Position numbers and translations under genes: made by a program. A stretch of 64,000 nucleotides of DNA from a virus (lineage: Duplodnaviria; Caudoviricetes), in the IMG/VR virus record IMGVR_UViG_3300028792_000005, positions 2,897 through 66,896 of that record; one strand, given 5' to 3'. The notes beneath the pieces were generated by a model that was given only the letters and a program-made list of their open reading frames with translations, made no database searches and was not told the origin of the DNA. Numbering within the stretch: position 1 is the stretch's first letter; the number at the start of each line of letters is the position of its first letter. This document shows positions 8,789 through 35,608 of this stretch, piece by piece.

Positions 8789-8798
8789 GCACACCTCC

Positions 8799-9301: not shown

Positions 9302-9415
9302 CGTGCCCTCCAAGGCACTCGGGTCACGCTCATGCGTGACGGTGGGTAGTGCGAGCGTTACTGCGCGCACATGACCGCCCGCCTGCCGAAACAGACGGAC
9401 GGCCAAACACGTGCG

Positions 9416-9583
9416 TTACGCGTTGTGCAGCGTGCAGTCGGGGCACACACGCTCTGGCGTGCAGTCCCAGCAGCACTCGTTGTGGAACGTGCGCTTGTAG
9501 TCACGCACGCACACGATCACCAGCGTGATCGCACCTGCGACCACGAAGCCGACGATCACCTGGGCGATCAGGTGCGCGATCAC
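9416..9583 (-). CDS. Small TM-anchored Cys-rich protein, 55 aa
   Basis: GTG overlapping TGA; MIAHLIAQVIVGFVVAGAITLVIVCVRDYKRTFHNECCWDCTPERVCPTARCTTR. Confidence 0.55.
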   Translation of the reverse strand: MIAHLIAQVIVGFVVAGAITLVIVCVRDYKRTFHNECCWDCTPERVCPDCTLHNA

Positions 9584-10203
9584 AGCCCGGTCACGCCGCT
9601 CATGCGCTGGCCGAAGCCGTGCTCACGTGCGCTGGCCTCCAGGTTCTGCTCAGCACGCAGGCGGCTGGCACGCACGCGCCTGATCTCCTCGCGCAACTCG
9701 TCGGCGGTCTTGCGCACCGTGCGTGTGGTGGGCACGGCGTGCTGGACCTTCACGGGTGCGGGCACGACCTCGACGCTGTACGTCGTGTGGCCGTAGATGC
9801 TGGAGTGGAAGATCAACTCGCCGCACTTGCTCGTGGCGTAGACCTTGCACCCGTACTCGCACGTGTGTGCGAGCCGCACCTCGCTGGCACCACCCAGGCA
9901 CTCGATGCCGTGTGTGTGGAGCAGCACGCGCTCCCACTCCGGCAACCGCGTGCCCACCGGACCCGTGTACGCAGGCGTGTACAGCGCGTCACGCACCTGC
10001 TCGCGCATGTCCAGGTCAGCGACCTCGCGGTTGCGCAGCACACGCGCCTCCACGTTGGCGCGCTTGTCCTCGTGGTTGCGCTGCACCTCGCGCCGCGCCT
10101 CGTTGCTCGTGAGCGTGAACGAGTACGTGCCCATGTCGTCGCTCTCCGTGACGACCGTGCGCTTGCCGATCTTCGGCAGCCGTGCGTTGTCGGTCTTGCT
10201 CAT
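9580..10203 (-). CDS. Hypothetical protein, 207 aa
   Basis: AGGAGG SD + ATG 10203. Confidence 0.75.
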   Translation of the reverse strand: MSKTDNARLPKIGKRTVVTESDDMGTYSFTLTSNEARREVQRNHEDKRANVEARVLRNREVADLDMREQVRDALYTPAYTGPVGTRLPEWERVLLHTHGIECLGGASEVRLAHTCEYGCKVYATSKCGELIFHSSIYGHTTYSVEVVPAPVKVQHAVPTTRTVRKTADELREEIRRVRASRLRAEQNLEASAREHGFGQRMSGVTGL

Positions 10204-10271
10204 GTGTTGGCCCTCCTGAGCCTGTGTGTGAAGTGCGCGTGGTGGCATGCGCGCCCCGCCTGTGGTGCTGG

Positions 10272-10655
10272 TTACACGCGTGCGTACTTGTTCCAGTACG
10301 TCTGGTTGCGGATCACGTCCGCACGCGTCTGGTAGCCCTTGCCGTGGCAGGCGAAGTGCTCACCCGTGTGCACGGGCACGCCGTTCACGCTGCCGCCCCA
10401 CGAGTAGCGACCTGTGCCGTTGCAGTCGCACTCGTGCTCAGCCTGCACACGCACCAGGTGTGTCTGGTCGAGCGTGTGCTCACCACGCGTGAGCGTGTCG
10501 AGGTTGAGCCACTCGACCTTCACGCGCAGTCCCTTGCGCGTCTTGCTGTCCACGAGGAACCGCTCGCCCTTGCGACCGAGCAGCACGTCGTGGGCGTGCA
10601 CGTTGTCGATGGTCGTGTCCAGCACCAGGCGGGTGTTCGCCTTGCGTGCGGTCAT
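10272..10655 (-). CDS. Protein with DnaJ-like CxCxGxG / CxGxG zinc-binding motif, 127 aa
   Basis: ECDCNGTG...FACHGKG; AGGAGG SD. Confidence 0.7.
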   Translation of the reverse strand: MTARKANTRLVLDTTIDNVHAHDVLLGRKGERFLVDSKTRKGLRVKVEWLNLDTLTRGEHTLDQTHLVRVQAEHECDCNGTGRYSWGGSVNGVPVHTGEHFACHGKGYQTRADVIRNQTYWNKYARV

Positions 10656-10710
10656 GCTGGCCTCCTAGGGCCTCGAAACGGACGCGTGTCCGTTTGTGTG
10701 TGGAAGTGTG

Positions 10711-11373
10711 TCACACCTTCGTCATGCGCGCCTTCGCCTGCTCCATCGTCTCCTCTCCGGCCCACACGCGCTCCAGCCCGTACTGGGCCGCGTGCTCGTA
10801 GGAGCAGAAGCCACCCTTCGTCCAACCCTCGACCTTGCCCACGCTCTTGCGCTTGCAGGAGCGCGATCCGTGGCGGTTGCTCGGGTCAGCCACGGTCCCG
10901 TTGCAGGGCGGCTGCGGGACGGTGCCGCGCGCCGTGAGTCCCTGTGCCGCGTAAGCGGCTCGCTGCGCACGCATCCGCTCGGTGCTGGTGTTCACGCGCT
11001 CGGCTGCGGGGATCTTGTGCTCGATCACCCGCACAGGCTCGGGCGTGCCGTTGGCGATCTGCTCAACCGTGTGCGCGAAGTACTCGATCTTGTGCGCGAG
11101 GTGGCGCATGTCGCTTTCGCACTCGTCCGCGAGCGACGCCAGCGCCTGCTCGATCTCGTCAGCCTCGGTCCAGGCGACCGCCTCCGCGCAGGCGTCCAGG
11201 AGAACCTGCGGGGTGGCGTACTGCGGGGTGATCACACGCACGTTGGTGCGGGTGGGCGGTGTGGCGAACGACGCGAGGAACGCCGCGTCAGGCGTGGTGG
11301 TGGTGGTGGTGTGCGTGTGCGCCTTGTGCACGTACACGAGAGCAACGAGCGCGAGCATGAGCAGGTACAGCAT
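10711..11373 (-). CDS. N-terminally anchored/secreted protein, 220 aa
   Basis: GGAGG SD + ATG 11373; hydrophobic N-terminus then poly-Thr; C-terminal C..C..C..C. Confidence 0.72.
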   Translation of the reverse strand: MLYLLMLALVALVYVHKAHTHTTTTTTPDAAFLASFATPPTRTNVRVITPQYATPQVLLDACAEAVAWTEADEIEQALASLADECESDMRHLAHKIEYFAHTVEQIANGTPEPVRVIEHKIPAAERVNTSTERMRAQRAAYAAQGLTARGTVPQPPCNGTVADPSNRHGSRSCKRKSVGKVEGWTKGGFCSYEHAAQYGLERVWAGEETMEQAKARMTKV

Positions 11374-11415
11374 GGTGGCCTCCAAGGGCCTCGTGCGCAG
11401 GTGCTACCTGCGCGT

Positions 11416-12470: not shown

Positions 12471-12793
12471 GGGGTGCCTCCTGCGGGCGTAGCGACGCGC
12501 GGAGCGTCGGTGAATGCCAGCCGTCTGGCTGACACATTCAGTATCGACCTGGACCAAATGTCGGTTGACTTCCACGGCGAAGTCATCCCCCCCGTTTCAC
12601 GCTCGCCGTACCTCAAGATCAAGATCTGCACTCGCGTGGTGGGTCTGTACGCAGCGGGTCCTCCGAAATATCTGTGTTCGGATTCCCGGATGCCTGATTG
12701 CCTCTGGAGGGGCTCCTGGACACGAGAACCAAACCAGTTCCGGTCTGGACGTTCGTTTATTCGTGAGGTTGTTCAGGAACGCTCAGAGGTTCC

Positions 12794-12991
12794 TTGCCCC
12801 AGGACTCGCTCCCCGGTGTTGCACGGGCATTCACACCAGATCTCGTGATCAGCGATGCAGGCGTGCTCACGTACAGGCCTGCCGATGCACTCAGGGCATC
12901 GGCGTTCGTGAATGTCAGCGGGCTGTTGCTGTTCCTGAGTCATGAGCACCTCCTGAGGCTAGAAGAACTTGCTGCTTCCAGTTCCTCTTGA
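12794..12991 (+). CDS. Possible small hypothetical protein, 65 aa
   Basis: Open frame (TTG start) in the divergence region; weak SD. Confidence 0.3.
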   Translation: MPQDSLPGVARAFTPDLVISDAGVLTYRPADALRASAFVNVSGLLLFLSHEHLLRLEELAASSSS

Positions 12992-13266
12992 GGTCTCTTG
13001 CTGTACTTGCTCTCGCGCTGCTCCGGGCAGTGTTCGCCCACCTGCTCGGTCTATGTTCGGCTTGCTTATGTGTGCGGCAGGGGCTGTCTCACGGGCTTGA
13101 CGGGCAGGATCTCCCCACACGTCCCGTCCAAAGTCACCGTGAGGGGCACCCATCCTCAGCCGCTTTGTCGGTGCTGGAGTTCACGGGCTTGGCATGCCAG
13201 ACTCATCGAGAACGTTCGGGTTCGGATGGAGGCCCCTAGAGGCCCAAGAAACAGGCGGTCGTCAGA

Positions 13267-13614
13267 ATGAACAAGCGGGACAAGAAACGCCTCGCAGCAC
13301 GTGTCAGTGAAGTCCCGCACCAGCGGGACTGGGACGAGTGGGAACGCGACATGTACTACCTGCACCGTCGCCCAGAGCCCATCCACGTTCCTGAGAAGAG
13401 CCCGTACCGGTCAGACGCGGAGAACATCCTGAAACTCGGGCTGGTCATCCTCACGCTGCTCGGTCTGGAGATCCTCGCAAGGATCGGCTACCGCTCCCAC
13501 ACGCTGCTGTGGCAGATCCTGGGCTGGGTGCTGTGGCTCGTCACCACCGCAACCATCTTCCTGTTCATCACCGCCACCGTGCGCACCCTGTGGAAGGGCT
13601 GGCGTGGTCGATAA
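13267..13614 (+). CDS. Two-TM membrane protein, 115 aa
   Basis: Two hydrophobic helices, basic termini; first gene of the coupled rightward array. Confidence 0.7.
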   Translation: MNKRDKKRLAARVSEVPHQRDWDEWERDMYYLHRRPEPIHVPEKSPYRSDAENILKLGLVILTLLGLEILARIGYRSHTLLWQILGWVLWLVTTATIFLFITATVRTLWKGWRGR

Positions 13615-13792
13615 GCCGGACAGCGACGAATGTCGCTGGTGCAAGGACCTGATCCTGCTGTTCCCTGAGGACCAGGACTGGATCCACGCCAAGACGCTCT
13701 GGCCTGCCTGCACCAGCGACTTCCAGACCATCAAGCCCGATGTTCGCTACGCGACACCGAACAACTACGAGATCCAGGAGGAGGCCCTGTGA
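13604..13792 (+). CDS. Small Cys/His protein, 62 aa; ends YEIQEEAL
   Basis: Coupled overlaps; CRWC..WIH..C. Confidence 0.65.
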   Translation: MVDKPDSDECRWCKDLILLFPEDQDWIHAKTLWPACTSDFQTIKPDVRYATPNNYEIQEEAL

Positions 13793-14166
13793 GCGACAAC
13801 TTCGATGAAGCGTTCCCGTATGTCGCTGTGACGACGTACAAGCCGTCAGGGACGCTCTCCATGATGCAGAGCGCCGTGAAGGGCATGCACCCGCCTCTGC
13901 TGACCGGAAACGGCTACACACGGTCCTCAGACAGCATCGCGGCCTACCTGGCTCCCTGGTACTGCGCCCGGTGTGAGCAGCGCGTCCTGCACGACAAGGA
14001 CGGCTACCGCAAGAACCGTGGCAAGCCCGCCTGGGTCCACCTCGGCACCATGAGTCCCTGGTGCATGAAAACCAAGCAGCACGGCCCCAAAAGTCGGTTC
14101 GTGTTCCCCGTGCCGTCCCTGTTCACGGTGAACGAGTTAGGAGTGCTCGATGCCGAAAGCCGGTGA
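13789..14166 (+). CDS. Hypothetical protein, 125 aa
   Basis: GGAGG SD + GTG; CARC..WVH..C. Confidence 0.7.
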   Translation: MSDNFDEAFPYVAVTTYKPSGTLSMMQSAVKGMHPPLLTGNGYTRSSDSIAAYLAPWYCARCEQRVLHDKDGYRKNRGKPAWVHLGTMSPWCMKTKQHGPKSRFVFPVPSLFTVNELGVLDAESR

Positions 14167-14272
14167 GATCCTCCGCGTGAACCGTAAGACCTACCGCTGG
14201 TGCGAAATGTGCGGCAAATGGATCCGCCACAACAGCCTCACCGGCACCGTCCACGTCTGCCGGAGGTACTGA
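14150..14272 (+). CDS. Small Zn-ribbon-like protein, 40 aa
   Basis: AGGAG SD; MPKAGEILRVNRKTYRWCEMCGKWIRHNSLTGTVHVCRRY. Confidence 0.55.
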   Translation: MPKAGEILRVNRKTYRWCEMCGKWIRHNSLTGTVHVCRRY

Positions 14273-14514
14273 TGCGCGCTGGTGACCTCACACCCGGCGA
14301 GTACTACGCCCACGGCTCCACCTACGTGAACTGCATCATCCACACCGTCACCTACTCAGCCGAACGACAGGAAGTGTGGGTCGACCACACCTACCAAGGT
14401 GAACGTATGAACCGCTGGTACGACGAAGACCGCGACTGGAAAGTGAAACGCCACAGCATCGTCATCGAAGAACCCGTCGACTGGGCCGACCTGCTCATAG
14501 CGGATCGTGCATGA
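14272..14514 (+). CDS. Small beta-barrel-like protein, 80 aa; tag IVIEE
   Basis: GGAGG SD + ATG 14272. Confidence 0.7.
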   Translation: MRAGDLTPGEYYAHGSTYVNCIIHTVTYSAERQEVWVDHTYQGERMNRWYDEDRDWKVKRHSIVIEEPVDWADLLIADRA

Positions 14515-14732
14515 GCCACGACAAGTACAGCGAAGACCACGACCACGACGAATGCCTCCGGCTGCCCTGCCCACGATGCGGCTGCGACCCCGTGACAGGT
14601 CGGTACGTCCCAGACGACTTCTCCGTCAAACGCTGGTCCTGCGAGATGTGCCAACCATGCTGGACCACCTATGAAGCCGACATGGAACCGCACGAACGCG
14701 AACTCCACCTCATCGAGGAGCACTTCCCGTAA
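14511..14732 (+). CDS. Cys-rich protein, 73 aa; tag HLIEE
   Basis: ATGA overlap; CPRCGC..CEMC. Confidence 0.68.
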   Translation: MSHDKYSEDHDHDECLRLPCPRCGCDPVTGRYVPDDFSVKRWSCEMCQPCWTTYEADMEPHERELHLIEEHFP

Positions 14733-15199
14733 TGGCAGGCCAACTCAGCAAAGCAGCGCGGGACGCGATGCTCGGGATGATCGTCGCCGACCAAAATAAA
14801 CGAACGTCAGATCCGAAAATCGGTCGCGCGCCTGCGGCGCAAGGGGACGCTTCTCAGCCCAGCCACTACTTCGAGGCCACGCTGCTAGACACGCGTGGCG
14901 AGGTCATTGGCATCGAGGACTTCCTGCTGAACATGACCTTTGATCAGGCGCGCGACGCGTTCGTGAACGCTGAGCGCATCTCCCTAGTAGCGACCAGCGC
15001 GCAGACCGTGGCGTCCCTGGTGCTGTGCGGAGACGGCCAACAGGTAGCGAACATCCCGCTGACCACCACCTGGAGCATCCAGCCTGGGGACACCGTGACG
15101 TTCGAGCCTGCCTCCGTGCAGATCAACATCCCGTTCGGGGCGCACCTAAAGTTCCCTGGGCTGCACGTGATCGAGGAGGAGCCCAGTCTGTATGACTGA
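14732..15199 (+). CDS. Paralog of virion protein 39886..40320, with tag HVIEEE
   Basis: MAGQLS.. and FVNAERISL..SIQPGDTVTFEPASVQI vs MAGSKS.. and SNANTISF..TILTGDTATLPPGALKI. Confidence 0.7.
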   Translation: MAGQLSKAARDAMLGMIVADQNKRTSDPKIGRAPAAQGDASQPSHYFEATLLDTRGEVIGIEDFLLNMTFDQARDAFVNAERISLVATSAQTVASLVLCGDGQQVANIPLTTTWSIQPGDTVTFEPASVQINIPFGAHLKFPGLHVIEEEPSLYD

Positions 15200-15470
15200 G
15201 GAACTCCTGCCGATGGATGGACCAGGTGGCGGCGTGTTGATCGACCACGACATGAGCGTGGTGCCAAGATGTGGCTCATGTTTGGAGCCACTTTTCGAGC
15301 AGCGTCAGTGGCTACTGGTCTGTAAGGGGGCCGACCACTACGTTGGGTCTGGGCAGTGGACCAAAGATGAGGCTCTTGAGGCTCTGGTCGCGCTCATCGA
15401 GCACATGTTCAAAGAGCATCCGTGTCCGTTGCACGCGTTCATCATCTACGAGGAGGAGGAACTGACGTGA
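15192..15470 (+). CDS. Hypothetical protein, 92 aa; tag FIIYEE
   Basis: GAGGAG SD; CGSC..C..CPLH. Confidence 0.68.
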   Translation: MTEELLPMDGPGGGVLIDHDMSVVPRCGSCLEPLFEQRQWLLVCKGADHYVGSGQWTKDEALEALVALIEHMFKEHPCPLHAFIIYEEEELT

Positions 15471-15727
15471 CGCTCGCCTACGCCGTTCCTCTGGTGCGCT
15501 TCGGCAACACGCTCATCAACCTCAACCACATTGACTACGCCATGACGAAGAAGGAAAGCGGCACTGACGCTCGCGGCTACCCGAAGATGCGTTACAAGTT
15601 GTACGTCTACTTCAACACGCCGAACAAGCATCTCGTGTGGTCCTACGACACTGAGGCCGAAGCGAAGGACGCTCTGGATAAGTTCGAGAAACTCAACGAG
15701 ATGTTCATGATGGCCGAACTGCCATGA
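15467..15727 (+). CDS. Hypothetical protein, 86 aa; variant tag FMMAE
   Basis: GAGGAGG SD + GTG 15467. Confidence 0.7.
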   Translation: MTLAYAVPLVRFGNTLINLNHIDYAMTKKESGTDARGYPKMRYKLYVYFNTPNKHLVWSYDTEAEAKDALDKFEKLNEMFMMAELP

Positions 15728-15951
15728 GTTGGAACCTCGACGCAAAGAAGTCACTCACAGCGAAGGGCGACAACTGCCCACACTGCAAGCGCACCCAGAT
15801 GCGCGCCGCGATCCACATGGAACTAAGGACGCTCGTTAGAAATGGCCAGATCACGACTCAGCAGATGGCTGACGCGTGCGAGGGATATTGCTTGGGCCAC
15901 GCCGGAGAATGGATCCCCGACTTCATCATCCGTGAGGAGCGTGAGCCCTGA
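15724..15951 (+). CDS. Hypothetical protein, 75 aa; tag FIIREE
   Basis: ATGA overlap; CPHC..C..C. Confidence 0.68.
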   Translation: MSWNLDAKKSLTAKGDNCPHCKRTQMRAAIHMELRTLVRNGQITTQQMADACEGYCLGHAGEWIPDFIIREEREP

Positions 15952-16225
15952 TGATCTGGAGTCGTTCGAAGACTGTGAGTACATGATGGAGTTCTCTGAC
16001 CCGCTGCGTGAGCGCGGCCTCCAGATCATCGACATGGCGAACTTGATGCGCTTCCAGAACGCTCTCAAAGAGATCGTGAACGTCCTTGGTCCTGATGACC
16101 TTGTTGACGGCTGCCCCGACTGCCATGCTGGCTGCCCCGGTCTTCTCGCTGAGGCGGGAGAGGCCCTGCGGATCGCCAAAGAGGCCCTCGCCGGTAAGCA
16201 CGTCCTGCCTGAGGAGAACACATGA
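15941..16225 (+). CDS. Hypothetical protein, about 94 aa; variant tag HVLPEE
   Basis: Start uncertain (GTG 15941 or ATG near 15983). Confidence 0.6.
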   Translation: MSPDDLESFEDCEYMMEFSDPLRERGLQIIDMANLMRFQNALKEIVNVLGPDDLVDGCPDCHAGCPGLLAEAGEALRIAKEALAGKHVLPEENT

Positions 16226-16443
16226 GCCGAGAGATGCCCTTCGACCCAGGAACCTGGGAGTGCCACATCTGCAAGGAGGAGCGTCCCGACGCCAGGATCT
16301 CCGTGCACCGCAAGCCGTTGATGGGATCGAACGGCGTGCCTTCACGTGTGATCAGCGAGAACGTGCGCTACTGCAACGACAAGCCGTCGTGCGCCACAGC
16401 CGCACGGTCCTTCTCGTTTGTTAGGAACTGGGGAAATCCGTGA
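16222..16443 (+). CDS. Small Cys4 protein, 73 aa
   Basis: GAGGAG SD; CHIC..YC..C. Confidence 0.68.
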   Translation: MSREMPFDPGTWECHICKEERPDARISVHRKPLMGSNGVPSRVISENVRYCNDKPSCATAARSFSFVRNWGNP

Positions 16444-16697
16444 CTCCTCTGCACATCAGTTTGGACGCCGAGCAGAATCCGCTGGGCCTGGATGTGGATA
16501 AGTTGCACGGCCAAGGAATGCTCACTGATATCGGATTGCTGCGTCACGGCACCACAGGTGGTCAGGCGAGTATCGGCATGGTCGTGACACTCAAGGACGG
16601 CACACAGGTGCTGGCCGAGACAACCTGGAAACTCTTCAAGACCGCGTACATGGCGCTGTCAGCCTCACCTATTGTGGCCGAGGAAGTGTGGGACTGA
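16440..16697 (+). CDS. Hypothetical protein, 85 aa; ends IVAEEVWD
   Basis: GTGA overlap. Confidence 0.7.
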   Translation: MTPLHISLDAEQNPLGLDVDKLHGQGMLTDIGLLRHGTTGGQASIGMVVTLKDGTQVLAETTWKLFKTAYMALSASPIVAEEVWD

Positions 16698-16867
16698 TGG
16701 AGACCGAACCGCTCGATGCGTGGCTGTCTCTCGGCTCAGCGTCCAGGGATGTCGGTGATCAGTTCGAGAAGATGGCTGACATGGCGAAGAAGGTCGCTGC
16801 ACTCCAGCACGAACTGAACGTCATTACCAGGATGAACGAGTACGTCATCGAGGAAATGGAACCTTGA
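16697..16867 (+). CDS. Small coiled-coil protein, 56 aa; tag YVIEEM
   Basis: TGATG overlap; METEPLDAWLS...NEYVIEEMEP. Confidence 0.62.
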   Translation: METEPLDAWLSLGSASRDVGDQFEKMADMAKKVAALQHELNVITRMNEYVIEEMEP

Positions 16868-17097
16868 TGCTCCAAGTCATCGGGCTGACGCTGGCTCCTG
16901 TCATGACCATCATGGCGTTCGTTGTCGGCGTGAAAATGGAAGCCGGTCGACAGTGGCGCACCATTACCCGACTGCAAGCAGAAAACATGGACCTGGAAGA
17001 TCGGCTTCGTGAGGCGAAGTGGGTCATCAGTGCGTACGAGGATGCGGTGAAGCAGAACCCGTATCACGAGACGTACATCATCGAGGAGGTCGCGTGA
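16867..17097 (+). CDS. TM + coiled-coil protein, 76 aa; tag YIIEE
   Basis: TGATG overlap. Confidence 0.68.
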   Translation: MLQVIGLTLAPVMTIMAFVVGVKMEAGRQWRTITRLQAENMDLEDRLREAKWVISAYEDAVKQNPYHETYIIEEVA

Positions 17098-17312
17098 TCC
17101 GCGACTACTCATCGTTGCGAAATGCTGCTGCTCGTTCAGACAGGCGTCTCAAAGTAGGAAAAGACGTGGAACTGCGTGCTGAGATGGCAGCGGAGAAGCG
17201 CACCGAACGTGCGCGTCGTGCATATGAACGGCGGGTAAGACAGGAAGAGGAGGACCGGAATCGGTACATCATTCCGGAGTTCCAGGACCTGGAAGAGCAA
17301 CTGACCGGTTAG
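17094..17312 (+). CDS. Arg-rich helical protein, 72 aa; tag YIIPE
   Basis: GAGGAGG SD + GTG 17094. Confidence 0.65.
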   Translation: MIRDYSSLRNAAARSDRRLKVGKDVELRAEMAAEKRTERARRAYERRVRQEEEDRNRYIIPEFQDLEEQLTG

Positions 17313-17335
17313 TCCCTCTACGCAAGGAGAACATC

Positions 17336-17530
17336 ATGGCTGACGAGACACCCAAGGTCGCTTACGTCGATGAGGACGGCAAGACCAAGGAGCGCAAGGC
17401 TGAGACCGGCAAGGACGACGCCCCTGAGGCTCCCAAGCCCCTCGGCACCGACCCGGCTGCACTCGGTGCAGACGGCAAGGAGGAGTACATGACGCAGAAG
17501 GACGCTGAGAAGGCCGACAGCGGCAAGTAG
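17336..17530 (+). CDS. Charged low-complexity protein, 64 aa
   Basis: AAGGAG SD; AAG/GAG/GCT-rich codons resembling the capsid genes. Confidence 0.75.
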   Translation: MADETPKVAYVDEDGKTKERKAETGKDDAPEAPKPLGTDPAALGADGKEEYMTQKDAEKADSGK

Positions 17531-17542
17531 TTCCAGCACAGT

Positions 17543-17578
17543 AAGAGGCCCCGAGTCACGAATGGCTCGGGGCCTCTT
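17543..17578. terminator. Strong hairpin, likely bidirectional terminator
   Basis: AAGAGGCCCCGAGTCA-CGAA-TGGCTCGGGGCCTCTT between convergent genes. Confidence 0.8.
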
Positions 17579-17660
17579 GCCGTCTTGGGGGTCGGGTGGC
17601 GGTCCCGGTGGTGCCCAGACGGGTGCGGCTGGTGCTCACACTTTCGAGGGGCAGCGTCCT

Positions 17661-17879
17661 CTACTCGTGGAACAGGTCTCCAGCGCGCTGGGCGTTGCCT
17701 TCGGTGGTGTAGTGGTGGTCGTTGGGCGTACGCGTGATCGTCTCGCTCTGCATAGACGCCATGTTGAACACGGTCTTAGTGACCGGCCCAGGGGTCGCTG
17801 CGGTGAGCGGGTCTACTGCTGGAACGATGGTGCCGCTGTACGGAAGCCCGTACACCGTGTCTCCGTTGCCGCTTGCCAT
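17661..17879 (-). CDS. Isolated reverse-strand protein, 72 aa
   Basis: GGAGG SD 6 nt before ATG 17879 (MASGNGDTVYGLPYSG...). Confidence 0.6.
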   Translation of the reverse strand: MASGNGDTVYGLPYSGTIVPAVDPLTAATPGPVTKTVFNMASMQSETITRTPNDHHYTTEGNAQRAGDLFHE

Positions 17880-17945
17880 GTGAATCCTCCGATGTCGGGT
17901 GTGTATGTGATGTCGTCTTGTTCGGATTCCCGATAGACTCCTGCT

Positions 17946-18257
17946 ATGTCTCGGGTCGACATCTGCTACGACGATCTGAGCGGCATCTACCTGGACAACA
18001 AATGGATGCCCGTTACTTCCATCGACGTGAACCGCTTCGACCATCCCGGCGAGAAGGTCTTCGTTCTAGGCAGCGCCACACCTGTTCACATCGAGCCCGA
18101 CCGTGTTGAGTGGACCGTGCGAGTGGAGTTGGACAACGGCAACCGTGGGCCGACGCTGGACATGACTATCAACGACCCGCAGATGTTCTTCTGGCCTAAG
18201 CGCGCCGACTACGTGGCCGACCAAGAGATGTACGTCATCCAGGAAATGACGCCATGA
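17946..18257 (+). CDS. Beta-rich hypothetical protein, 103 aa; tag YVIQEM
   Basis: Coupled to next gene. Confidence 0.68.
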   Translation: MSRVDICYDDLSGIYLDNKWMPVTSIDVNRFDHPGEKVFVLGSATPVHIEPDRVEWTVRVELDNGNRGPTLDMTINDPQMFFWPKRADYVADQEMYVIQEMTP

Positions 18258-18595
18258 AGCCGCGTCAGATGTCCTGGGCTGGCTACTGGCAAGAAGACCA
18301 GATGTACGTGCAGGGCGATGTCGTCATCATGAACGGACAGGTGTTCATCCTCCGGTCTGGTGAGTCCCAGAAGATGCCGACGATGCATGACGGATATGAC
18401 TGGGTGTACATCGGTGCGCACGAGCCGCACAAGATCGACCACCACTGGATGCCGGAACTTGCGTCGTATCCACTGCCTGACGGATCGCTGCTCAGTGAGC
18501 CAACACCACTGTGCCGGGAGTGCTGGTACACCAACAACTACGTGCTGGCGTTCAAGGCTGACGCACACCACTACGTTATCCAGGAAATGCCATGA
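18254..18595 (+). CDS. CBM5/12-like carbohydrate-binding module protein; tag YVIQEM
   Basis: W..YWQEDQMYVQGDVVIMNGQVF...P......DWVYIG. Confidence 0.62.
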   Translation: MKPRQMSWAGYWQEDQMYVQGDVVIMNGQVFILRSGESQKMPTMHDGYDWVYIGAHEPHKIDHHWMPELASYPLPDGSLLSEPTPLCRECWYTNNYVLAFKADAHHYVIQEMP

Positions 18596-19050
18596 CCCAT
18601 GCTTCTAGTGGTCAGTCAGTGCCGATGATGAGTGGCGGCATCATCGTCCCTTGGGATGAGTCGCAGAAGATCGAGAACACCACATGGTCGGTGCGGGTCG
18701 GGGACGTTCCTCCGTCAGAGATCCTGGCCTTCGAGATCTGTTACGACTACGGCATCAAGGAGCACGTGACATGGGCTGAGGAGCACTGGTTCCCGGTCAA
18801 CGGCAAGGCTCAGCGCATCACGGGCGCATCCATCGTTGCGAGCAGCACGAACGGCGGTCCTTGCCATTTTCGCGGCGTGTTGGAGCCTGGTGTGGCCTTC
18901 CGTGTGCGTATTGTTGAGTCCAGCGGGATGGATATCCCTGTACACGTGCAATGCGGTAAGGCTTCTTATGTAGGCGTTATTTCGACTTTAATGCCCGTTA
19001 CCTATCTAATAGATGAGGAAATGGGCTTGGAAGACCTGTTTAACCCCTAG
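18592..19050 (+). CDS. Hypothetical beta-rich protein, 152 aa; tag YLIDEE
   Basis: ATGA overlap. Confidence 0.68.
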   Translation: MTHASSGQSVPMMSGGIIVPWDESQKIENTTWSVRVGDVPPSEILAFEICYDYGIKEHVTWAEEHWFPVNGKAQRITGASIVASSTNGGPCHFRGVLEPGVAFRVRIVESSGMDIPVHVQCGKASYVGVISTLMPVTYLIDEEMGLEDLFNP

Positions 19051-19176
19051 TAAAGATCACTTAGGACAGGTACTTCCTAGAAGGCTCATCTGTGGCTATG
19101 CTGCCCTCATCGGTCGGGTTCCCGAATAGGGCCTCGCAGCCATCACTGTTCCTACGAGCAGTCGGGAGGCTGCCGC

Positions 19177-19596
19177 ATGTCCGTTGTTGCGAAGTTCTAC
19201 GTTACTAACGTCGAGCGCCCTGAGGGTTCTTCGACCGCAAGCAAGATCGACCTCCAGCCTGTGTGCCGGGGCATCGAAAACGCTGGTTGGGCCAGCGCTA
19301 CTCCGGGTGGAAGCATCACTCTGTGGTCGCTGAACGATAACGCCACCGACTACTTCGAGCGTGGTCAGGAGTACGAGATCCACTTCCTCCAGGTAGCGAA
19401 GCCCACTCCTGGTGACGGTCACAGTGTTCGCGCCATCAAGACCAAGTACGGCTCGTACATCTGTGCGACGTGTGGCGGCTCGCCCAACTTCAAGAACGAC
19501 GCACGTTGGGACACCGCCACGCTGGATGACCTTGACTGGACCAAGCACACTGAGATCTACTCAGCGCCTTCACCTGACGCGTCTACGGACGCCTAG
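19177..19596 (+). CDS. Phage hypothetical protein, 139 aa
   Basis: GGAGG SD; VVAKFYV..LQPV..EN..WASATPGGSITL..N.NA..YF..GQEY pattern recalled from phage hypotheticals. Confidence 0.78.
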   Translation: MSVVAKFYVTNVERPEGSSTASKIDLQPVCRGIENAGWASATPGGSITLWSLNDNATDYFERGQEYEIHFLQVAKPTPGDGHSVRAIKTKYGSYICATCGGSPNFKNDARWDTATLDDLDWTKHTEIYSAPSPDASTDA

Positions 19597-19623
19597 TCGT
19601 GCGGCCACGTAACGGCCTGACAC

Positions 19624-19929
19624 ATGACAGAGCCCATCCACATCCGAAAGATCGACTTCTCGGAGTTCCACCCGCTGTTCCACAACATCTTCGAATGCAG
19701 TGGATTTCCTGGCGGTCGGAAGCGCCATCTCCAGTACCGCTGGGAGTTCCAGGTCCGCGAAGCCATCACGGGTCGTCTGTTTCGACCTCTGTGCTGGATG
19801 GGTCGGCATGAACTACGTACGTGGTCACGGACAGTCGGTCCCAATCACACTGGTCCCGTTGACTCATGGCGCGTTTGTAATCGCTGTGGGTTTCGTCCCA
19901 CGCCATCCATGTCCGTAGGCCAACCGTAA
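19624..19929 (+). CDS. Hypothetical protein, 101 aa
   Basis: C..GRH..CNRCG motif. Confidence 0.55.
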   Translation: MTEPIHIRKIDFSEFHPLFHNIFECSGFPGGRKRHLQYRWEFQVREAITGRLFRPLCWMGRHELRTWSRTVGPNHTGPVDSWRVCNRCGFRPTPSMSVGQP

Positions 19930-20010
19930 AGAGCCAACCCGGTATCCCGAGCGGCCAGAGGACGATGTTCAGCAAGAACACACCGTTCACATCGGCAGAA
20001 AGGCAGTGGA

Positions 20011-20175
20011 ATGGCAGACGAGAAGAAGGACACGACCATCGTGGAGACTCCGAAGGCTCCTGAGCCTCCGAAGGAAGAGACGGTCAAGGCTCAGGCTGCG
20101 GAGGCCAGCGAGGCGCTGGAGAAGCCGAAGCAGGTTCAGTCAAAGGGTCGCGGCGTGGGTCTGCACAACCGTTAG
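20011..20175 (+). CDS. Charged low-complexity protein, 54 aa
   Basis: AAAGG SD; MADEKKDTTIVETPKAPEPPKEE... Confidence 0.62.
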   Translation: MADEKKDTTIVETPKAPEPPKEETVKAQAAEASEALEKPKQVQSKGRGVGLHNR

Positions 20176-20188
20176 TTTTCGCCGTACG

Positions 20189-20223
20189 CTGGGCGGTGCC
20201 TCCTTGACCGGGGCACCGCCCAG
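20189..20223 (+). terminator. 12-bp hairpin (terminator/stabiliser)
   Basis: CTGGGCGGTGCC / GGCACCGCCCAG. Confidence 0.6.
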
Positions 20224-20239
20224 TTGCGTTGGAGGCAAC

Positions 20240-20650
20240 ATGGCTATCGGAGAAGGCTCCAGCCCGCAGTACATCTACACGGCGAGCAACAACACCAACA
20301 CAGCCACTATCGGCTCGCTGTACCTGAACTCCACGTCGAATCAGATGTACGTCGGTAATGGCACTCAGTGGCAACCCCTGACGACCTACACGACAACGGC
20401 TGCCACCACCTTCACCTGGAACGGTGATCCCAACGTGGCTCTGACAGGGAGCCGGATCTTCCAGTCGATGGAAGAGCGTGTTGAGTACCAGCAGCAGGCG
20501 TACCAGGAGCCTCGGGATCACGCGTACAACCCTGACTCATTCGGCACGTGCAGCGACTGCAAGCCACACAACCTGCACCGTCACAGCGCCGACAAGCACC
20601 TCTTCATCATTGACGAAGAAATCCCGTGGTCTGATCGCCTGGCTAGTTAG
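20240..20650 (+). CDS. Protein with tail-fibre-like segment, 136 aa; tag FIIDEE
   Basis: GGAGG SD + ATG 20240; GSLYLNSTSNQMYVGNGTQWQPL. Confidence 0.68.
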   Translation: MAIGEGSSPQYIYTASNNTNTATIGSLYLNSTSNQMYVGNGTQWQPLTTYTTTAATTFTWNGDPNVALTGSRIFQSMEERVEYQQQAYQEPRDHAYNPDSFGTCSDCKPHNLHRHSADKHLFIIDEEIPWSDRLAS

Positions 20651-20658
20651 CCGATGAC

Positions 20659-20847
20659 ATGAACGTGAGCCGGACGGAGACCATCCAAGAACGTCGGATG
20701 GCCATGGCTGCGAAGTTGGGCACTGCCCGTGCAGACCACTCATGGCGCGAGAAGGATGACGGTTCTTGCGGTCGCTGCCAGGTTCTCTCACCGTTCCGCT
20801 GGGATCGGGTCGCCCACCCTTACGTCATCGAGGAGGAGCCATTTTGA
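20659..20847 (+). CDS. Small protein, 62 aa; tag YVIEEEPF
   Basis: H..CGRC..H. Confidence 0.62.
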   Translation: MNVSRTETIQERRMAMAAKLGTARADHSWREKDDGSCGRCQVLSPFRWDRVAHPYVIEEEPF

Positions 20848-20903
20848 GCAACGGCTATCAACGGAGTCCTGTCCTCCCGACATAGGGGGTGGTCCGATCT
20901 CGG

Positions 20904-20934
20904 CGGGGGCCAGTCGCTCTCGTGCTGGCCCCCG
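20904..20934. terminator. Hairpin between convergent genes
   Basis: CGGGGGCCAG / CTGGCCCCCG. Confidence 0.65.
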
Positions 20935-20940
20935 TTCGGA

Positions 20941-21444
20941 CTACTGCTTCGCGTACTTCTTGTACGCCGCGTACCAGTCAGTCGCCATCTCTCGCTGAGC
21001 CTGCTTGAGAGTCTCCTGTCCCGAGCAGACGCGCCGGTGCATGACGTTCTCCAGGACATCCTTCTCGTGAAATCCTGGCTTGGGTGACGCCGCCTCCAGC
21101 CACAGGTTCTTGATGTCGTTCGAACCACCGATAGTCAGCGGGATGATGTGATCGACCTCGTACATCCCAGCAGGCTGCGGGTAGGTGACGTGGTACTCGG
21201 CGTACACCGCTTTCTTGCTTGCCTCACTGACGTTGCGGCGCGCCGCTGTGGACTGCGTGCAAACCACGTGCAGAGTGACCGAAGAGTCAGCGAGACCTGG
21301 ACTGATAGTGCGGTCTGGCTCCATGCCAGCGTGGATCTGAGAAGAGGCATCATGGGAACTCGTCTGACCCGTAACGGCAGCAACGCCGCCAGCCAGAACG
21401 AGCGCACCCACGGCAGCGACGATGTGATGACGACGGACGGTCAC
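20941..21444 (-). CDS. Secreted HNH-family nuclease-like protein, 167 aa
   Basis: Signal-peptide-like N-terminus; YEVDHIIPLTIGGSNDIKNLWLE. Confidence 0.78.
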   Translation of the reverse strand: MTVRRHHIVAAVGALVLAGGVAAVTGQTSSHDASSQIHAGMEPDRTISPGLADSSVTLHVVCTQSTAARRNVSEASKKAVYAEYHVTYPQPAGMYEVDHIIPLTIGGSNDIKNLWLEAASPKPGFHEKDVLENVMHRRVCSGQETLKQAQREMATDWYAAYKKYAKQ

Positions 21445-21621
21445 GAGGACTCCTCAAGGTTGCAGCGTGTCCTCGCCTTTCATCGGCCTCGCTACACCCA
21501 GGACCAATCGGGCAAGGTCGACTCAGAACGCCTGCCGATTTGTACCGGTTGTGAGGTGAACTTCTGGCCGTGTCCTACGGTGAAGTTGGGCAACGGTACG
21601 TGGGAGTCAGTCCCAGTCTGA
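21427..21621 (+). CDS. Small Zn-binding phage protein, about 64 aa (start uncertain)
   Basis: VLAFHRP...CTGC..FWPCPTVK. Confidence 0.58.
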   Translation: MTTDGHEDSSRLQRVLAFHRPRYTQDQSGKVDSERLPICTGCEVNFWPCPTVKLGNGTWESVPV

Positions 21622-21656
21622 ACTGATCCGATCCTCTGACAACAGAGGGAGGTCGG

Positions 21657-21950
21657 ATGACGCATCGAGTCAAGATCATTCGGACTGGTCGTGTGGTCAC
21701 CACCGTCGACATTGACGACTACGACATCGCGTGTGAATGGGCGTACGACTCGATGCGGTTGAACCGAGCCCTCGACGGTGACGGGCGATGGGCTGCCACT
21801 CTCGAATCTGGACGGCTGTTCGTAGACCCGTGGGGCAACGGCAAGTCCTTCTTCTTCGCTGACGGAGACCGCAAGGAAGGGCTCGTCCTGGACAAGGCGA
21901 TGCTGCACGATCCAAAGATCAACATGCAGGATCTGTTTGGGCTCTCGTGA
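21657..21950 (+). CDS. Hypothetical protein, 97 aa
   Basis: GGGAGG SD. Confidence 0.7.
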   Translation: MTHRVKIIRTGRVVTTVDIDDYDIACEWAYDSMRLNRALDGDGRWAATLESGRLFVDPWGNGKSFFFADGDRKEGLVLDKAMLHDPKINMQDLFGLS

Positions 21951-22123
21951 TGGACACCGGCCAGTGGGTTGCGATGTGGGTCTGGCTGGCGTTCACTGGA
22001 ATGTTCACGGCTCTGTTCGTGATGGGCATGATGCGCACGACGCGCAAGAAGTGGCCAGATCGACCCATCCTCTCTGATGAGGAGCGTGCACAGTGGGAGC
22101 AGATCGAACGGCACTGGCAATGA
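21950..22123 (+). CDS. Small single-TM protein, 57 aa
   Basis: Coupled overlaps at both ends; WVAMWVWLAFTGMFTALFVMGMM. Confidence 0.62.
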   Translation: MDTGQWVAMWVWLAFTGMFTALFVMGMMRTTRKKWPDRPILSDEERAQWEQIERHWQ

Positions 22124-22344
22124 AGTACCAGCCCGGTGACCAGGTGCTGGTGTGGCACACGACGGCATCACCGTTGGAGGAGCCGAAGCGCTGCATGATC
22201 CTGCGAGCGGCCCAGCGATCACGGTTGTACGCCTACGAGGTGACCTGGGGCTCGTTCGGAGATCAGTTCATCCGCGTGAAAGAGGACTGGATCAGTCCCG
22301 CAGAGACCCAAATCGAAGAAGTGCCCGACACGCCCTTCGATTAG
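22120..22344 (+). CDS. SH3/KOW-like small protein, 74 aa; ends QIEEVPDTPFD
   Basis: MKYQPGDQVLV... pattern; ATGA overlap. Confidence 0.65.
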   Translation: MKYQPGDQVLVWHTTASPLEEPKRCMILRAAQRSRLYAYEVTWGSFGDQFIRVKEDWISPAETQIEEVPDTPFD

Positions 22345-34569: not shown

Positions 34570-34817
34570 TGCAGGCCAACGCGATTCCTTTCACTGCCAC
34601 TGGTGTCGTTGACGCCGATGCGCTGTCGGTTGTCGGCATGACCTACACCGGCTTCACCAGCGTTGTCGTCTACAACGGCTCCGACAACACGGGTGCACCT
34701 GTCCTGGTCGGCGGTGCTGCTGGTACCTACGGCTTGTCGTACGAACTGCTGTGCGACAACGGCGTCTTCATCCAGGCCACCGGCTCTGGCAAGGGCACTG
34801 TGTGGGTCGCCGGGTAA
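34569..34817 (+). CDS. Small beta-rich virion protein, 82 aa
   Basis: TAATG overlap (MQANAIPF...). Confidence 0.68.
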   Translation: MQANAIPFTATGVVDADALSVVGMTYTGFTSVVVYNGSDNTGAPVLVGGAAGTYGLSYELLCDNGVFIQATGSGKGTVWVAG

Positions 34818-35608
34818 TGGACACCCTGCTGATCGAGCGCAACAACCGCCTGTTCCTAGCGAACACGGCGCGAGTTGTGCGTGCCGCCAGCGACGTGACC
34901 GAGGATTTCGCTGCCGCTGCTGACTGGGAGTTCGACACCAAGAGCGGCTCCCCGTTCATCAAATGGATCGCTGGCGACTTCGTTGAGGCCGACAACCCGA
35001 ACCAGAACAAGCAGTTCTGGACGAAGGACGACCTGGCGATGGGCGAGTACTCGATCAAGTACGCGCCACTGAACATGCTGCACAAGCAACGTCAGCCAGT
35101 CGGCTTCTTCGCCTCAACGCGCACCATCGACCTGTCCCAGGACAAGGCGTCGACCGGTACCGCGAAAATCGAGGCGCTCTCGGGCCTGTGGTCGCACATC
35201 TTCCCGTTCGAGTCGGCGGTCGTTGACCAGGCCGACGAGGCGGGTTCGTTGTTCTACAGCATGGAGGTGCGCGGTACCCACGTGCACTGTGCTGGTGAGA
35301 ACGGCTGCGACAAGCAGTTCGAGTACATGAAGCCTGAGGACCACTGCTCCCACATCAAGGAGCGCACCTCTATTCGTCACATCGTCAACCCCACGTTCCG
35401 TGGCGGTGCGTTGATCATCCCTCCGGTCAAGCCGGGTTGGGCCAGCGCCCACGCGAACGTCTATGAGCAGGCCATCCGCGATGAAGCCAGTCGATATGCC
35501 GAACTCACTGAGGTCGCATACCGGCAGGTAACAGACGGTGGTTCTGAGGTGTCCCCAGCCGCTTGGGAGCACCTAATGGCGACCGTGATCTCCATGTCAG
35601 ACCGTTGA
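34817..35608 (+). CDS. Capsid maturation protease (putative), 263 aa
   Basis: N.NKQFW..DDL, PLNMLH..PVG, SMEV; position before scaffold and capsid. Confidence 0.72.
   Translation: MDTLLIERNNRLFLANTARVVRAASDVTEDFAAAADWEFDTKSGSPFIKWIAGDFVEADNPNQNKQFWTKDDLAMGEYSIKYAPLNMLHKQRQPVGFFASTRTIDLSQDKASTGTAKIEALSGLWSHIFPFESAVVDQADEAGSLFYSMEVRGTHVHCAGENGCDKQFEYMKPEDHCSHIKERTSIRHIVNPTFRGGALIIPPVKPGWASAHANVYEQAIRDEASRYAELTEVAYRQVTDGGSEVSPAAWEHLMATVISMSDR

Follow-up and report, generated by a model that had tools for sequence, protein, structure and literature searches.

In T-even phages, diverse internal proteins have only a capsid targeting sequence (CTS) in common, the T4 protease gp21 cleaves after L/I-x-E, and both Alt and gp21 carry C-terminal propeptides that are processed (PMC9026906, PMC3012670). 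The start-associated sequences of Cluster K mycobacteriophages form a repeated motif, Shine-Dalgarno (SD) sequence included, at many gene starts (PMC3203893). The locus described here lies in a window of 64,000 nucleotides (positions 2,897 to 66,896 of record IMGVR_UViG_3300028792_000005, a 66.9-kb fragment whose near-complete relatives measure ~148 to 149 kb) from an uncultured, soil-type phage. In this window, about 18 otherwise unrelated small proteins have a common terminal peptide, aromatic-aliphatic-Ile-x-Glu-Glu-Pro, with the consensus [P/H]-x-[Y/F/H]-[V/I/L/T]-I-x-E-[E]-P; a short form stops at the consensus, and a long form runs on for ~10 residues with [L/W]-x-[D/E]-L-[L/F]. We consider this motif likely to be a portable C-terminal peptide tag that is attached, within one phage clade, to many small accessory proteins unrelated to one another, and whose putative role looks like that of an undescribed address label.

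Like the T-even CTS, the tag is a short peptide that is the only common part of diverse, fast-evolving accessory or anti-defence proteins, and it contains the Ile-x-Glu of the gp21 rule in a phage with a candidate gp21-like protease, the latter a lead only. It differs from the CTS in being C-terminal rather than N-terminal, in being carried by 18 to 45 proteins in each genome rather than by a handful, in belonging to genes of early-type arrays, and in its extra conserved aromatic, aliphatic, and Pro positions. The start-associated sequences resemble it as a motif repeated at many genes of one phage clade that includes the SD, but they are nucleotide motifs upstream of starts, whereas conservation of the tag follows codons and amino acids and needs no downstream start. 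Coupled junctions with an embedded downstream SD are matched in half of the cases by GAG-GAR-CCN plus GTGA/ATGA; unlike them, the peptide stays without a downstream gene, far from starts, and through synonymous change, and three tag residues lie upstream of the SD, encoded by bases not complementary to the 3' end of 16S rRNA. Encapsulin cargo-loading peptides are likewise short C-terminal peptides on flexible linkers of unrelated proteins; they dock on an HK97-fold shell and are Gly/Ser/Leu-rich and basic, whereas the phage tag is acidic, with a quite different consensus. The HK97-type capsid protein of the phage is unusually conserved (84 to 95% identity). C-terminal degrons (ssrA tag, MuA C-motif 2) are also exposed C-terminal peptides that give unrelated proteins a common fate, but they end in small hydrophobic residues, whereas the phage tag is acidic and Pro-capped and keeps no fixed distance to the free end.

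The tagged genes lie in early-type arrays adjoining a divergent control region, outside the head module. At all 18 gene ends named in a first-pass annotation of the window, the residues were found where it had placed them, 12 in the strict form [YFH][VILM]-I-x-E and six as weaker variants (YEIQEE, IVIEE, FMMAE, HVLPEE, IVAEE, and TQIEE):

13766..13792, + strand, weak-variant tag ..NNYEIQEEAL ending gene 13604-13792; coupled GTGA
14458..14514, + strand, long-form tag ..SIVIEEPVDWADLLIADRA ending gene 14272-14514; core 18 residues before the end
14706..14732, + strand, tag ..LHLIEEHFP ending gene 14511-14732
15164..15199, + strand, tag ..LHVIEEEPSLYD ending gene 14732-15199
15438..15470, + strand, tag ..AFIIYEEEELT ending gene 15192-15470
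15704..15727, + strand, degenerate tag ..MFMMAELP ending gene 15467-15727
15922..15951, + strand, tag ..DFIIREEREP ending gene 15724-15951
16199..16225, + strand, degenerate tag ..KHVLPEENT ending gene 15941-16225
16671..16697, + strand, degenerate tag ..PIVAEEVWD ending gene 16440-16697
16841..16867, + strand, tag ..EYVIEEMEP ending gene 16697-16867
17074..17097, + strand, tag ..TYIIEEVA ending gene 16867-17097; the GTG at 17094 has GAGGAG as its SD
17265..17312, + strand, long-form tag ..RYIIPEFQDLEEQLTG ending gene 17094-17312; uncoupled, next start at 17336
18231..18257, + strand, tag ..MYVIQEMTP ending gene 17946-18257
18572..18595, + strand, tag ..HYVIQEMP ending gene 18254-18595; the orthologue in relative G002 ends ..LYVIRELGL
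19003..19050, + strand, long-form tag ..TYLIDEEMGLEDLFNP ending gene 18592-19050; followed by a 126-nt gap
20603..20650, + strand, long-form tag ..LFIIDEEIPWSDRLAS ending gene 20240-20650
20821..20847, + strand, tag ..HPYVIEEEPF ending gene 20659-20847; no plus-strand gene for ~800 nt downstream
22306..22344, + strand, degenerate long-form tag ..TQIEEVPDTPFD ending gene 22093-22344

Of 27 early plus-strand genes, 12 have the strict motif within 20 residues of the C-terminus, versus 0 of the 91 other genes in the record (Fisher p = 2e-9); internally, it occurs just 3 times in 17,498 positions. Aromatic-aliphatic-Ile stands before E-[EM] at 9 of 27 terminal early dipeptides versus none of 95 internal ones. 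With "..I.E.P" as the sole criterion, the clade genomes gave 55 matches near C-termini versus 11 internal ones, and 41 of the 55 terminal matches have an aromatic residue two positions ahead of the Ile. The claim that coupled left-arm genes lack the tag holds inside the window only: a tagged left-arm gene (..KIPYTIEETP) lies just beyond its edge, and at least 13 such genes are on the left arm of the relative G003.

Where genes are tightly packed, the codons for Glu-Glu-Pro (GAG GAR CCN) would double as ribosome-binding site (RBS), spacer, and GTGA/ATGA overlap for the next gene. The peptide could be read as a side product of a junction cassette conserved as nucleic acid (RBS, spacer, start/stop overlap) with a functionless tail, its sequence likeness perhaps maintained by gene-shuffling recombination. 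The tag does stand 4 to 12 nt ahead of an overlapping GTGA/ATGA start in 31 of 62 tagged genes, 28 of these 31 with GGAG-like words; the G002 and G003 junctions are highly stereotyped (..ATC CAG GAG GAA CCG TGA), and near-identical 18-mers occur in the window. However, no downstream ORF is coupled to the other 31 tagged genes, as judged with a simple in-house gene caller that may miss short or unusual ORFs downstream of some of them, and I, E, E, and P are still kept in the half of the tags that are uncoupled or 30 to 50 nt from any start. Thus E5 is kept in 19 of 31 uncoupled versus 14 of 31 coupled tags and P6 in 17 versus 22, with GGAG-like words in 19 uncoupled tags; at gene 14272-14514, the core is too far upstream to act as the next gene's SD. 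Because E-E-P is equally kept in uncoupled genes, the tag comprises the entire heptapeptide, and the proposal that its EE part alone is SD-driven fails, whereas the broader claim of a peptide-level tag, more than an SD imprint, gains support from its persistence without a following gene and its variation at synonymous sites. The codon for x, which separates the invariant Ile from the invariant Glu, is also free, and where coupled junctions of these genomes carry no tag, the SD is read in other frames. The junction cassette is already disfavoured, and we think it very unlikely to account for the peptide; RBS use of the Glu-Glu-Pro codons is secondary, a second use rather than the cause.

Codon usage also speaks against a cassette. 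Tag Ile codons ATC/ATT/ATA number 48/11/3 against a background of 93/6/1%, and GAA makes up 34% of tag Glu codons versus 16% in the background; synonymous sites in the tag vary more than background, an excess that is partly survivorship, as the gene list was chosen by peptide pattern, a bias that spares only the orthologue families and the SLOG homologues. In the orthologue family of gene 20240-20650, 9 of 17 tag residues are invariant versus 5 of the 20 preceding ones, with different codons at 8 of the 9 (including Ser AGT versus TCC), and H-L-F-[IV]-I..E..W..L-A-S is kept in four orthologues. In that of gene 18592-19050, whose tag uses the rare codons TAT CTA ATA, 7 of 14 tag residues are invariant versus 1 of 20 preceding ones, and FVIDEE..LEDLL is kept. 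HPYVIEEE is invariant across three orthologues of gene 20659-20847 that are otherwise 46% identical, and the orthologues of gene 22093-22344 end in IVIQEMPESPFD and WTIQESPELMDLL. At the aromatic position, codons one nucleotide away from TAC specify His or Phe 13 times and Asn/Asp/Ser/Cys once. The comparison of synonymous and nonsynonymous change in relatives, proposed in the first-pass annotation, thus shows residues kept while codons differ (Ser AGT/TCC, Ile ATC/ATT/ATA), and these patterns indicate that the tag amino acids are held by selection for an action at the protein level. All four near-identical 18-mers that it pointed out are present, but the spread by recombination at gene ends that it suggested is not favoured, because synonymous sites in the tag vary more than the genomic background.

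The tag is found on more than 40 protein families without mutual BLAST similarity in four related phage lineages (the window; L001/L105/L098; G002/G003; L014/L035), and no paralogy was detected by BLAST among the tagged proteins, as expected from the claim that they are mutually unrelated. It is extremely unlikely that they form one fast-diverging paralogous family with the tag as its conserved C-terminal end: all tagged proteins in the window are small ORFans without Pfam matches, so that deep homology is possible by sequence, but no BLAST matches link tagged proteins within one genome, their lengths run from 28 to 168 residues, and in G003 the tag is joined to WGR, SLOG/YAcAr, and DUF7448, three distinct known domains whose many other homologues are without it. 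The six closest homologues of the SLOG/YAcAr protein carry P-x-YVIxExP, whereas none of the other 114 listed homologues has this appendage (a motif match in one of them is fortuitous, being the last strand of the domain itself), and sampled homologues stop at or soon past that strand. In an AF2 model, the body has a pLDDT of ~97, whereas in the tag pLDDT drops from 74 to 51 without secondary structure. Homologue ends and model agree that the tag is an appendage, predicted to lie outside the folded body.

The complete sister genome G009, whose capsid protein is 67% identical, is without the aromatic-aliphatic-Ile-x-Glu tag; its small proteins end in ..AIASI[KQR].. or ..ELFGL[AG] in place of the YVIxExP type. 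The DNA pattern for [YF][VIM]I-x-E has 1 match in G009 versus 25 in G003, and A-I-x-S-I has 9 versus 0 (controls, 0). No GGAG was found upstream of the next start at the G009 tail junctions, a further point against the junction cassette. DUF7448 homologues occur in three states, with no tail, a YVIxExP-type tail, or an AIxSI[KR]G-type tail. Since G009 small proteins end in other tails, the tags are, on this comparison, swappable dialects, and because this sister phage has a wholly different tail on the same kind of protein, the reader of the tag is probably phage-encoded.

We hypothesize that the tag is an exposed docking strip whose aromatic, aliphatic, and Ile side chains would lie in a groove, with the invariant Glu contacting a basic or metal site, and that one common reader would handle all tagged proteins alike. 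A degradation or turnover signal for a host protease or unfoldase, giving timed clearance of accessory proteins, seems improbable: the sharing of a C-terminal peptide by unrelated proteins is typical of degrons, the AF2 model leaves the tag exposed and flexible, and the genes lie in early-type arrays, but the core stands 5 to 19 residues from the true C-terminus and the last residues are not alike. Signals of the ssrA or MuA type require a defined free end. The entirely different tail in a same-family sister phage also fits a phage-encoded reader better than a conserved host machine. A phage MoxR AAA+/vWA pair, with the invariant Glu as putative ligand of the vWA metal site (MIDAS) and with remodelling or delivery of the tagged proteins by the ATPase, is a still weaker candidate, and we give it little credence. 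G003 encodes a MoxR ATPase (assigned by Pfam, its adjacency to the vWA gene inferred rather than mapped) and a vWA protein of 649 aa whose D-x-S-x-S site is intact (DNSGS, residues 478 to 482), 9 of the 12 genes immediately downstream carry the tag, and the G009 vWA gene, 51% identical, lies amid genes with G009's own dialect. Integrin-type MIDAS ligands are short acidic motifs, e.g., I-E-T-P and L-D-V-P. However, the 66.9-kb record has no vWA or MoxR gene, the vWA gene is distant from most tagged genes, and no recurrent tails were found within 10 kb of vWA homologues (26 to 36% identity) in distant phages.

By analogy with T4, the most likely candidate reader, though a tentative one that we think has the odds against it, is the prohead core with a gp21-like protease: the tag would load tagged proteins into proheads and then be cut after I-x-E. 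The I-x-E that is invariant in the tag matches the gp21 rule, L/I-x-E. On the other side, the genes lie in early-type arrays away from the head module, ~12 to 17% of all genes would have to encode capsid cargo, the tagged proteins have no basic character (median pI, 5.3), the short form has just two residues beyond the putative cut, the protease is unseen by Pfam and PHROGs, and [VI]-x-E occurs in only ~8 of 13 sister-phage tails. The candidate is as follows:

34817..35608, + strand, 263-aa protein between portal and scaffold; possible gp21-like (S77/S80) prohead protease

This protein has no Pfam or PHROGs match by which a protease would be recognised, and its AF2 model (pLDDT 30) is unusable; as a gp21-type prohead protease it is a lead only, suggested by language-model features, by which prohead proteases make up 25 of its 30 nearest named Atlas clusters (17 S77/S80, 7 S78, and 1 S80 alone).

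The C-terminal tag (aromatic-aliphatic-Ile-x-Glu-Glu-Pro) is a property of one phage clade, being carried by many small genes in the window and in three further lineages. In the window (positions 2897-66896 of one virus record of 66.9 kb), the tagged genes lie in an array that opens the plus-strand arm; the features below are from our own gene map.

up to ~12,470, minus strand: left arm
12,500-13,260: divergent gap
13,267-22,344, plus strand: about 27 small, tightly packed genes opening the plus-strand arm
downstream of the small-gene array and before the terminase, plus strand: dCTP deaminase, then RusA
29,282-30,952, plus strand: terminase
downstream of the terminase, plus strand: portal (31749-33512), scaffold (35658-36713), capsid protein (37262-38200), then a 2,234-aa tape measure protein

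All 18 gene ends listed in the first-pass annotation read as described there, with 12 fitting the strict form [YFH][VILM]-I-x-E and six being weaker variants. Twelve of the 27 early genes have the strict motif within their last 20 residues, as against none of the 91 other genes (Fisher p = 2e-9), and it is found internally only three times in 17,498 positions. With internal Glu-Glu/Met pairs serving as a control for Shine-Dalgarno (SD) constraint, aromatic-aliphatic-Ile was found ahead of 9 of 27 terminal pairs versus 0 of 95 internal ones. The tagged proteins had been described as unrelated, and indeed they have no BLAST similarity to one another; no Pfam families were found among those in the window, and charge and hydropathy do not differ between tagged and untagged small proteins. 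Tagged ends in the other lineages include ..PEYVIQEEP, ..RPFVIEELP, and ..QDFVIYEEP (G002/G003), ..LYLIEEEPW and ..PYVIPEMPY (L014/L035), and ..AFVIQEEP and ..PYVIEEEPS (L001/L105/L098), while the tag is nearly absent from unrelated viral contigs. Of the 273 genes called in the near-complete relative G003, approximately 32 to 45 carry the tag, on both arms and with none in the structural module. Only four orthologous groups join tagged proteins across lineages, which puts the number of unrelated tag-bearing families well above 40.

Across 62 tags, the consensus reads [P/H at -2, -1]-[Y35 F12 H6]-[V38 I11 L6 T5]-I-[E/Q/R/P/D/S]-E-[E33]-[P39], in which the Ile and Glu at i and i+2 are invariant by definition. 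It is followed either by the stop codon (short form) or by a tail of about ten residues with [L/W]-x-[D/E]-L-[L/F], such as MGLEDLF, PWSDLLAS, or SPELMDLL (long form), so that proteins end in P, PF, LAS, DLL, and others, always 5 to 19 residues from the tag. The anchor "..I.E.P" alone gave 55 terminal versus 11 internal matches.

Relatives were collected via the portal, a conserved 60-aa protein, and a DNA pattern; a scan of metagenome contigs contributed a single useful new locus. No INPHARED phage matched the region by megablast, and the closest large terminase subunit in that collection is 43% identical, indicating that no close relative is present there. Since related IMG/VR genomes are ~148 to 149 kb (G003, 149,260 bp; the sister phage G009, 147,685 bp with terminal repeats and rated 100% complete), the 66.9-kb record containing the window is a fragment. 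Among relatives, the capsid protein is 84 to 95% identical, versus 61 to 73% for the portal, 72% for the terminase, and 56 to 72% for the scaffold. Second in conservation between the window and G003, at 74.5% identity, is a 212-aa protein without known family just upstream of the terminase genes (28037-28675), for which ESM Atlas features point weakly to YonG-like phage proteins; a PDB sequence search with two conserved proteins of no known family came back empty. In the head module, the gene at 38825-39403 contains a strict motif (38918-38932; YVIRE, with YVIQE in the G003 orthologue, both near residue 31 to 35). It is the sole internal strict copy kept in a relative, lies in a stretch that is conserved generally, and could be a maturation site or a chance occurrence.

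The motif might instead be an SD-embedded coupling junction without peptide function, and both features of that reading were tested. At GTGA/ATGA overlaps, GAG-GAR-CCN does set GGAG-like bases 4 to 9 nt ahead of the next start, as the first-pass annotation had proposed. However, a junction needs the motif only at SD distance from a downstream start, whereas 31 of the 62 tagged genes are uncoupled, i.e., with no ORF of at least 30 residues beginning near the stop codon or with the tag 30 to 50 nt upstream of the stop; persistence where the tag has no SD role, another point raised earlier, is thus borne out. The second Glu and the Pro are as common in uncoupled tags as in coupled ones, and GGAG-like words are fewer in the uncoupled tags. 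Because E-E-P persists where no gene follows, the coupling role looks secondary. A junction also needs nucleotides to be at least as conserved as amino acids, whereas we found codons varying and residues kept. The synonymous variation noted earlier is real: the tag Ile is encoded by ATC, ATT, and ATA in 48, 11, and 3 cases and Glu by GAA in a third (background among small genes, 93% ATC and 84% GAG), with non-ATC Ile in 11 of 31 uncoupled versus 3 of 31 coupled tags, an excess that, taken alone, is partly survivorship because the tag list was picked by peptide.

Orthologue families, which were found through the protein bodies, are free of this bias. In the 20240-20650 family, all four lineages agree at 9 of 17 tag residues, 8 of which use different codons, versus only 5 of the preceding 20 residues, and a Ser is encoded by AGT in two lineages and by TCC in the other two. 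Invariant positions in the 18592-19050 family number 7 of 14 in the tag versus 1 of 20 preceding it, and HPYVIEEE is invariant across three orthologues that are 46% identical elsewhere. Further, two residues before the Ile of the "..I.E.P" anchor (n = 55) we found Tyr 27 times, His 8, Phe 5, and Trp 1; among the residues reachable from TAC by a single base change at this aromatic position, six in number, His and Phe account for 13 occurrences and Asn, Asp, Ser, and Cys together for one. In the x codon that separates the invariant Ile from the Glu, all three bases vary. Pairing of TACGTCATC with a conserved stretch of 16S rRNA was rejected, as GTG, ATC, and CTC variants break the pairing and keep the amino acid class; an RNase E-type cleavage motif was dropped on the same grounds. 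We consider it likely that the tag is selected as a peptide, at the protein level. C-terminal residues that are usually dismissed as SD imprints can then be under peptide selection, which matters for annotation and for synthetic operon design.

The protein of G003 with a SLOG/YAcAr domain ends in ..VPGYVIIEQP, and its five nearest homologues (other contigs; 64 to 69% identical) end in ..AYVIAEWP, ..TYVIAETP, ..VYIITETP, ..AYVIKEMP, and ..GYVIVEEPG. The appendage is missing from all of the other 114 homologues listed; sampled ends stop at or shortly past the domain's last strand, and only one of these homologues matches the motif, by way of that same strand. In an AF2 model (86 homologues), the domain has a pLDDT of ~97, and tag residues 113 to 122 are without secondary structure, pLDDT falling from 74 to 51. 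As modeled, the tag is an appendage on protein bodies, outside the fold. WGR and DUF7448 proteins of G003 are also tagged. Descent of all tagged proteins from a single paralogous family would call for homology or one fold among the bodies; BLAST detected no homology, and the bodies in G003 include WGR, SLOG/YAcAr, and DUF7448 domains.

Tails differ between related phages. Homologues of the DUF7448 protein occur in three states: without a tail, with a YVIxExP-like tail (..PHLVQEEP, ..GYRIVEEP), or with a ..D[ED][VI]xxAIxSI[KR]G.. tail. The sister phage G009, which was retrieved through homologues of the G003 vWA protein, has a capsid protein 67% identical to the window's. Among the small genes around its vWA gene, at least nine end in ..AIASI[QKR].. 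and four or five in ..[DE]E[VI][KR]E[LV]FGL[AG], and no GGAG lies upstream of the next start at these junctions. The DNA patterns of the two dialects are mutually exclusive between the two phages: [YF][VIM]I-x-E gave 25 matches in G003 versus 1 in G009, A-I-x-S-I gave 0 versus 9, and reversed-pattern controls gave 0. Related phages thus tail the same sort of proteins differently, from which we infer a co-evolving label-reader pair and hence a phage-encoded reader; such exclusive dialects offer a natural co-variation experiment for finding it.

A tail of the type ..[DE]-L-F-G-[LM].. also ends a conserved 97-aa protein in the window (21657-21950; ..NMQDLFGLS at 21921-21950), with further sites in L001 (~597-626), L098 (~2729-2758), and the contig L120 (13300-13990), and ..EEVKELFGLA ends three or four consecutive genes of G009. 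More than one label may be in use in this clade. Three ORF ends of a distant phage with a vWA gene (L139; IMGVR_UViG_3300001242_000019) share IVI.D / I.IPD, which may be another dialect or noise.

Our searches of the literature found no description of such a tag. We tentatively propose, as a possibility that falls short of an even chance, a genome-wide "postcode" in large actinophage-like viruses, whereby up to a sixth of the genes would carry swappable, lineage-specific C-terminal labels (YVIxEEP here; AIASIK or ELFGL in the sister clade) and one phage-encoded machine would read them, sorting, loading, or timing accessory/anti-defence proteins. Candidates for that machine include the prohead core with its protease and a MoxR-vWA remodeller. 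With label codons reused as ribosome-binding sites, new genes would plug into the array ready-labelled. Small early or accessory genes of phages are mostly ORFans that offer no handle for study; with a shared label, finding one reader would inform on dozens of proteins. If the tag is a loading or sorting signal, it would also be portable, sending foreign proteins to wherever the phage's own go, a use that the T4 capsid-targeting sequence has already had.

A reader composed of the prohead core and protease, in the manner of T4 capsid targeting, ranks first among the candidates considered, although it too is more unlikely than likely. Diverse T-even internal proteins have only a capsid-targeting peptide in common, and Alt and gp21 of T4 are trimmed at the C-terminus too (PMC9026906, PMC3012670); gp21 cuts after L/I-x-E (PMC9026906). 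Like the T4-type targeting sequence/gp21 propeptide, the tag is a short peptide common to otherwise unrelated phage proteins and contains the cleavage motif, resembling a protease site with a fixed Ile at P3, a free P2, and a fixed Glu at P1; unlike the N-terminal T4 peptide, it lies 5 to 19 residues from the C-terminus. In being C-terminal and outside the fold, as modeled for the SLOG/YAcAr protein, it resembles encapsulin cargo-loading peptides, whose binding site is on the inner face of an HK97-fold shell protein. Between portal and scaffold, a 263-aa protein (34817-35608) with a conserved Cys/His cluster (H-x-H-C..C..H-C-x-H) had no match in Pfam, PHROGs, or a PDB sequence search, and its AF2 model, from a three-sequence alignment, has a pLDDT of 30. 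By language-model features, however, 25 of its 30 nearest named ESM Atlas clusters are prohead proteases (17 S77/S80, 7 S78, and 1 S80 alone), making it a candidate gp21-like prohead protease, as a lead only. Against a T4-like role, tagged genes sit in early-type arrays, the tagged proteins are many and not basic, and the short form has just two residues past the putative cut.

Recognition by a host degradation machine or protease is improbable, fitting poorly because the distance from tag to C-terminus varies and because dialects differ; ssrA/ClpX-type degrons have a fixed free C-terminus with small hydrophobic last residues, in contrast to the offset and varied ends of the tag. A MoxR-vWA reader seems more doubtful still. 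G003 encodes such a machine with an intact MIDAS (DNSGS) and with 9 of the 12 downstream genes tagged, and G009 has a vWA homologue, but vWA/MoxR is absent from the window's record, itself a fragment, and no recurrent tails were found near the vWA genes of 45 more distant phages. The G003 vWA protein (L109:24-1970) itself ends in ..NDDASDLLFSSL, resembling the [DE]-L-[LF] second motif of long-form tags. The Type VII secretion signal YxxxD/E was rejected, as 27 of the 62 tags have F, H, I, or L in place of the Tyr, with Ile the invariant residue, and as that signal needs a helix-turn-helix body, whereas tagged bodies include the SLOG alpha/beta fold. Resemblances to a clamp-binding motif, SSB-tail mimicry, a SUMO-interaction-like strand, and an Hsp70 IEEVD-like motif are, like that to Type VII YxxxD/E, only loose and were set aside.

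A scan of genome contigs with a 20-mer junction gave no prophage among 40 matches (L057-L096). Twenty-two of these, nearly all in Thermoleophilaceae MAGs, are an internal strand-loop, RYVIEEEPLGTAG, of a predicted NDP-sugar pyrophosphorylase-like enzyme; the exact heptapeptide YVIEEEP lies inside it with the same codons and is conserved across many of these MAGs. These matches were treated as coincidence and not as a clue to the host.

Two minus-strand genes lie within the tagged array. One (17661-17879; MASG...Y-H-E*) is present in all four lineages (G002 15481-15663, L014 9088-9564, and L105 2303-2500), has no family match, and could be a local regulator. The other, an HNH-like endonuclease gene by a weak Pfam match (20941-21444), interrupts the array directly after an uncoupled tag (20821-20847). 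For about a dozen genes of the minus-strand left arm (2386-11390), the SD is embedded in a small hairpin of the GGCC..AGGA..GGCC type immediately ahead of the start, e.g., ggcccaaggaggcc-N4-ATG.
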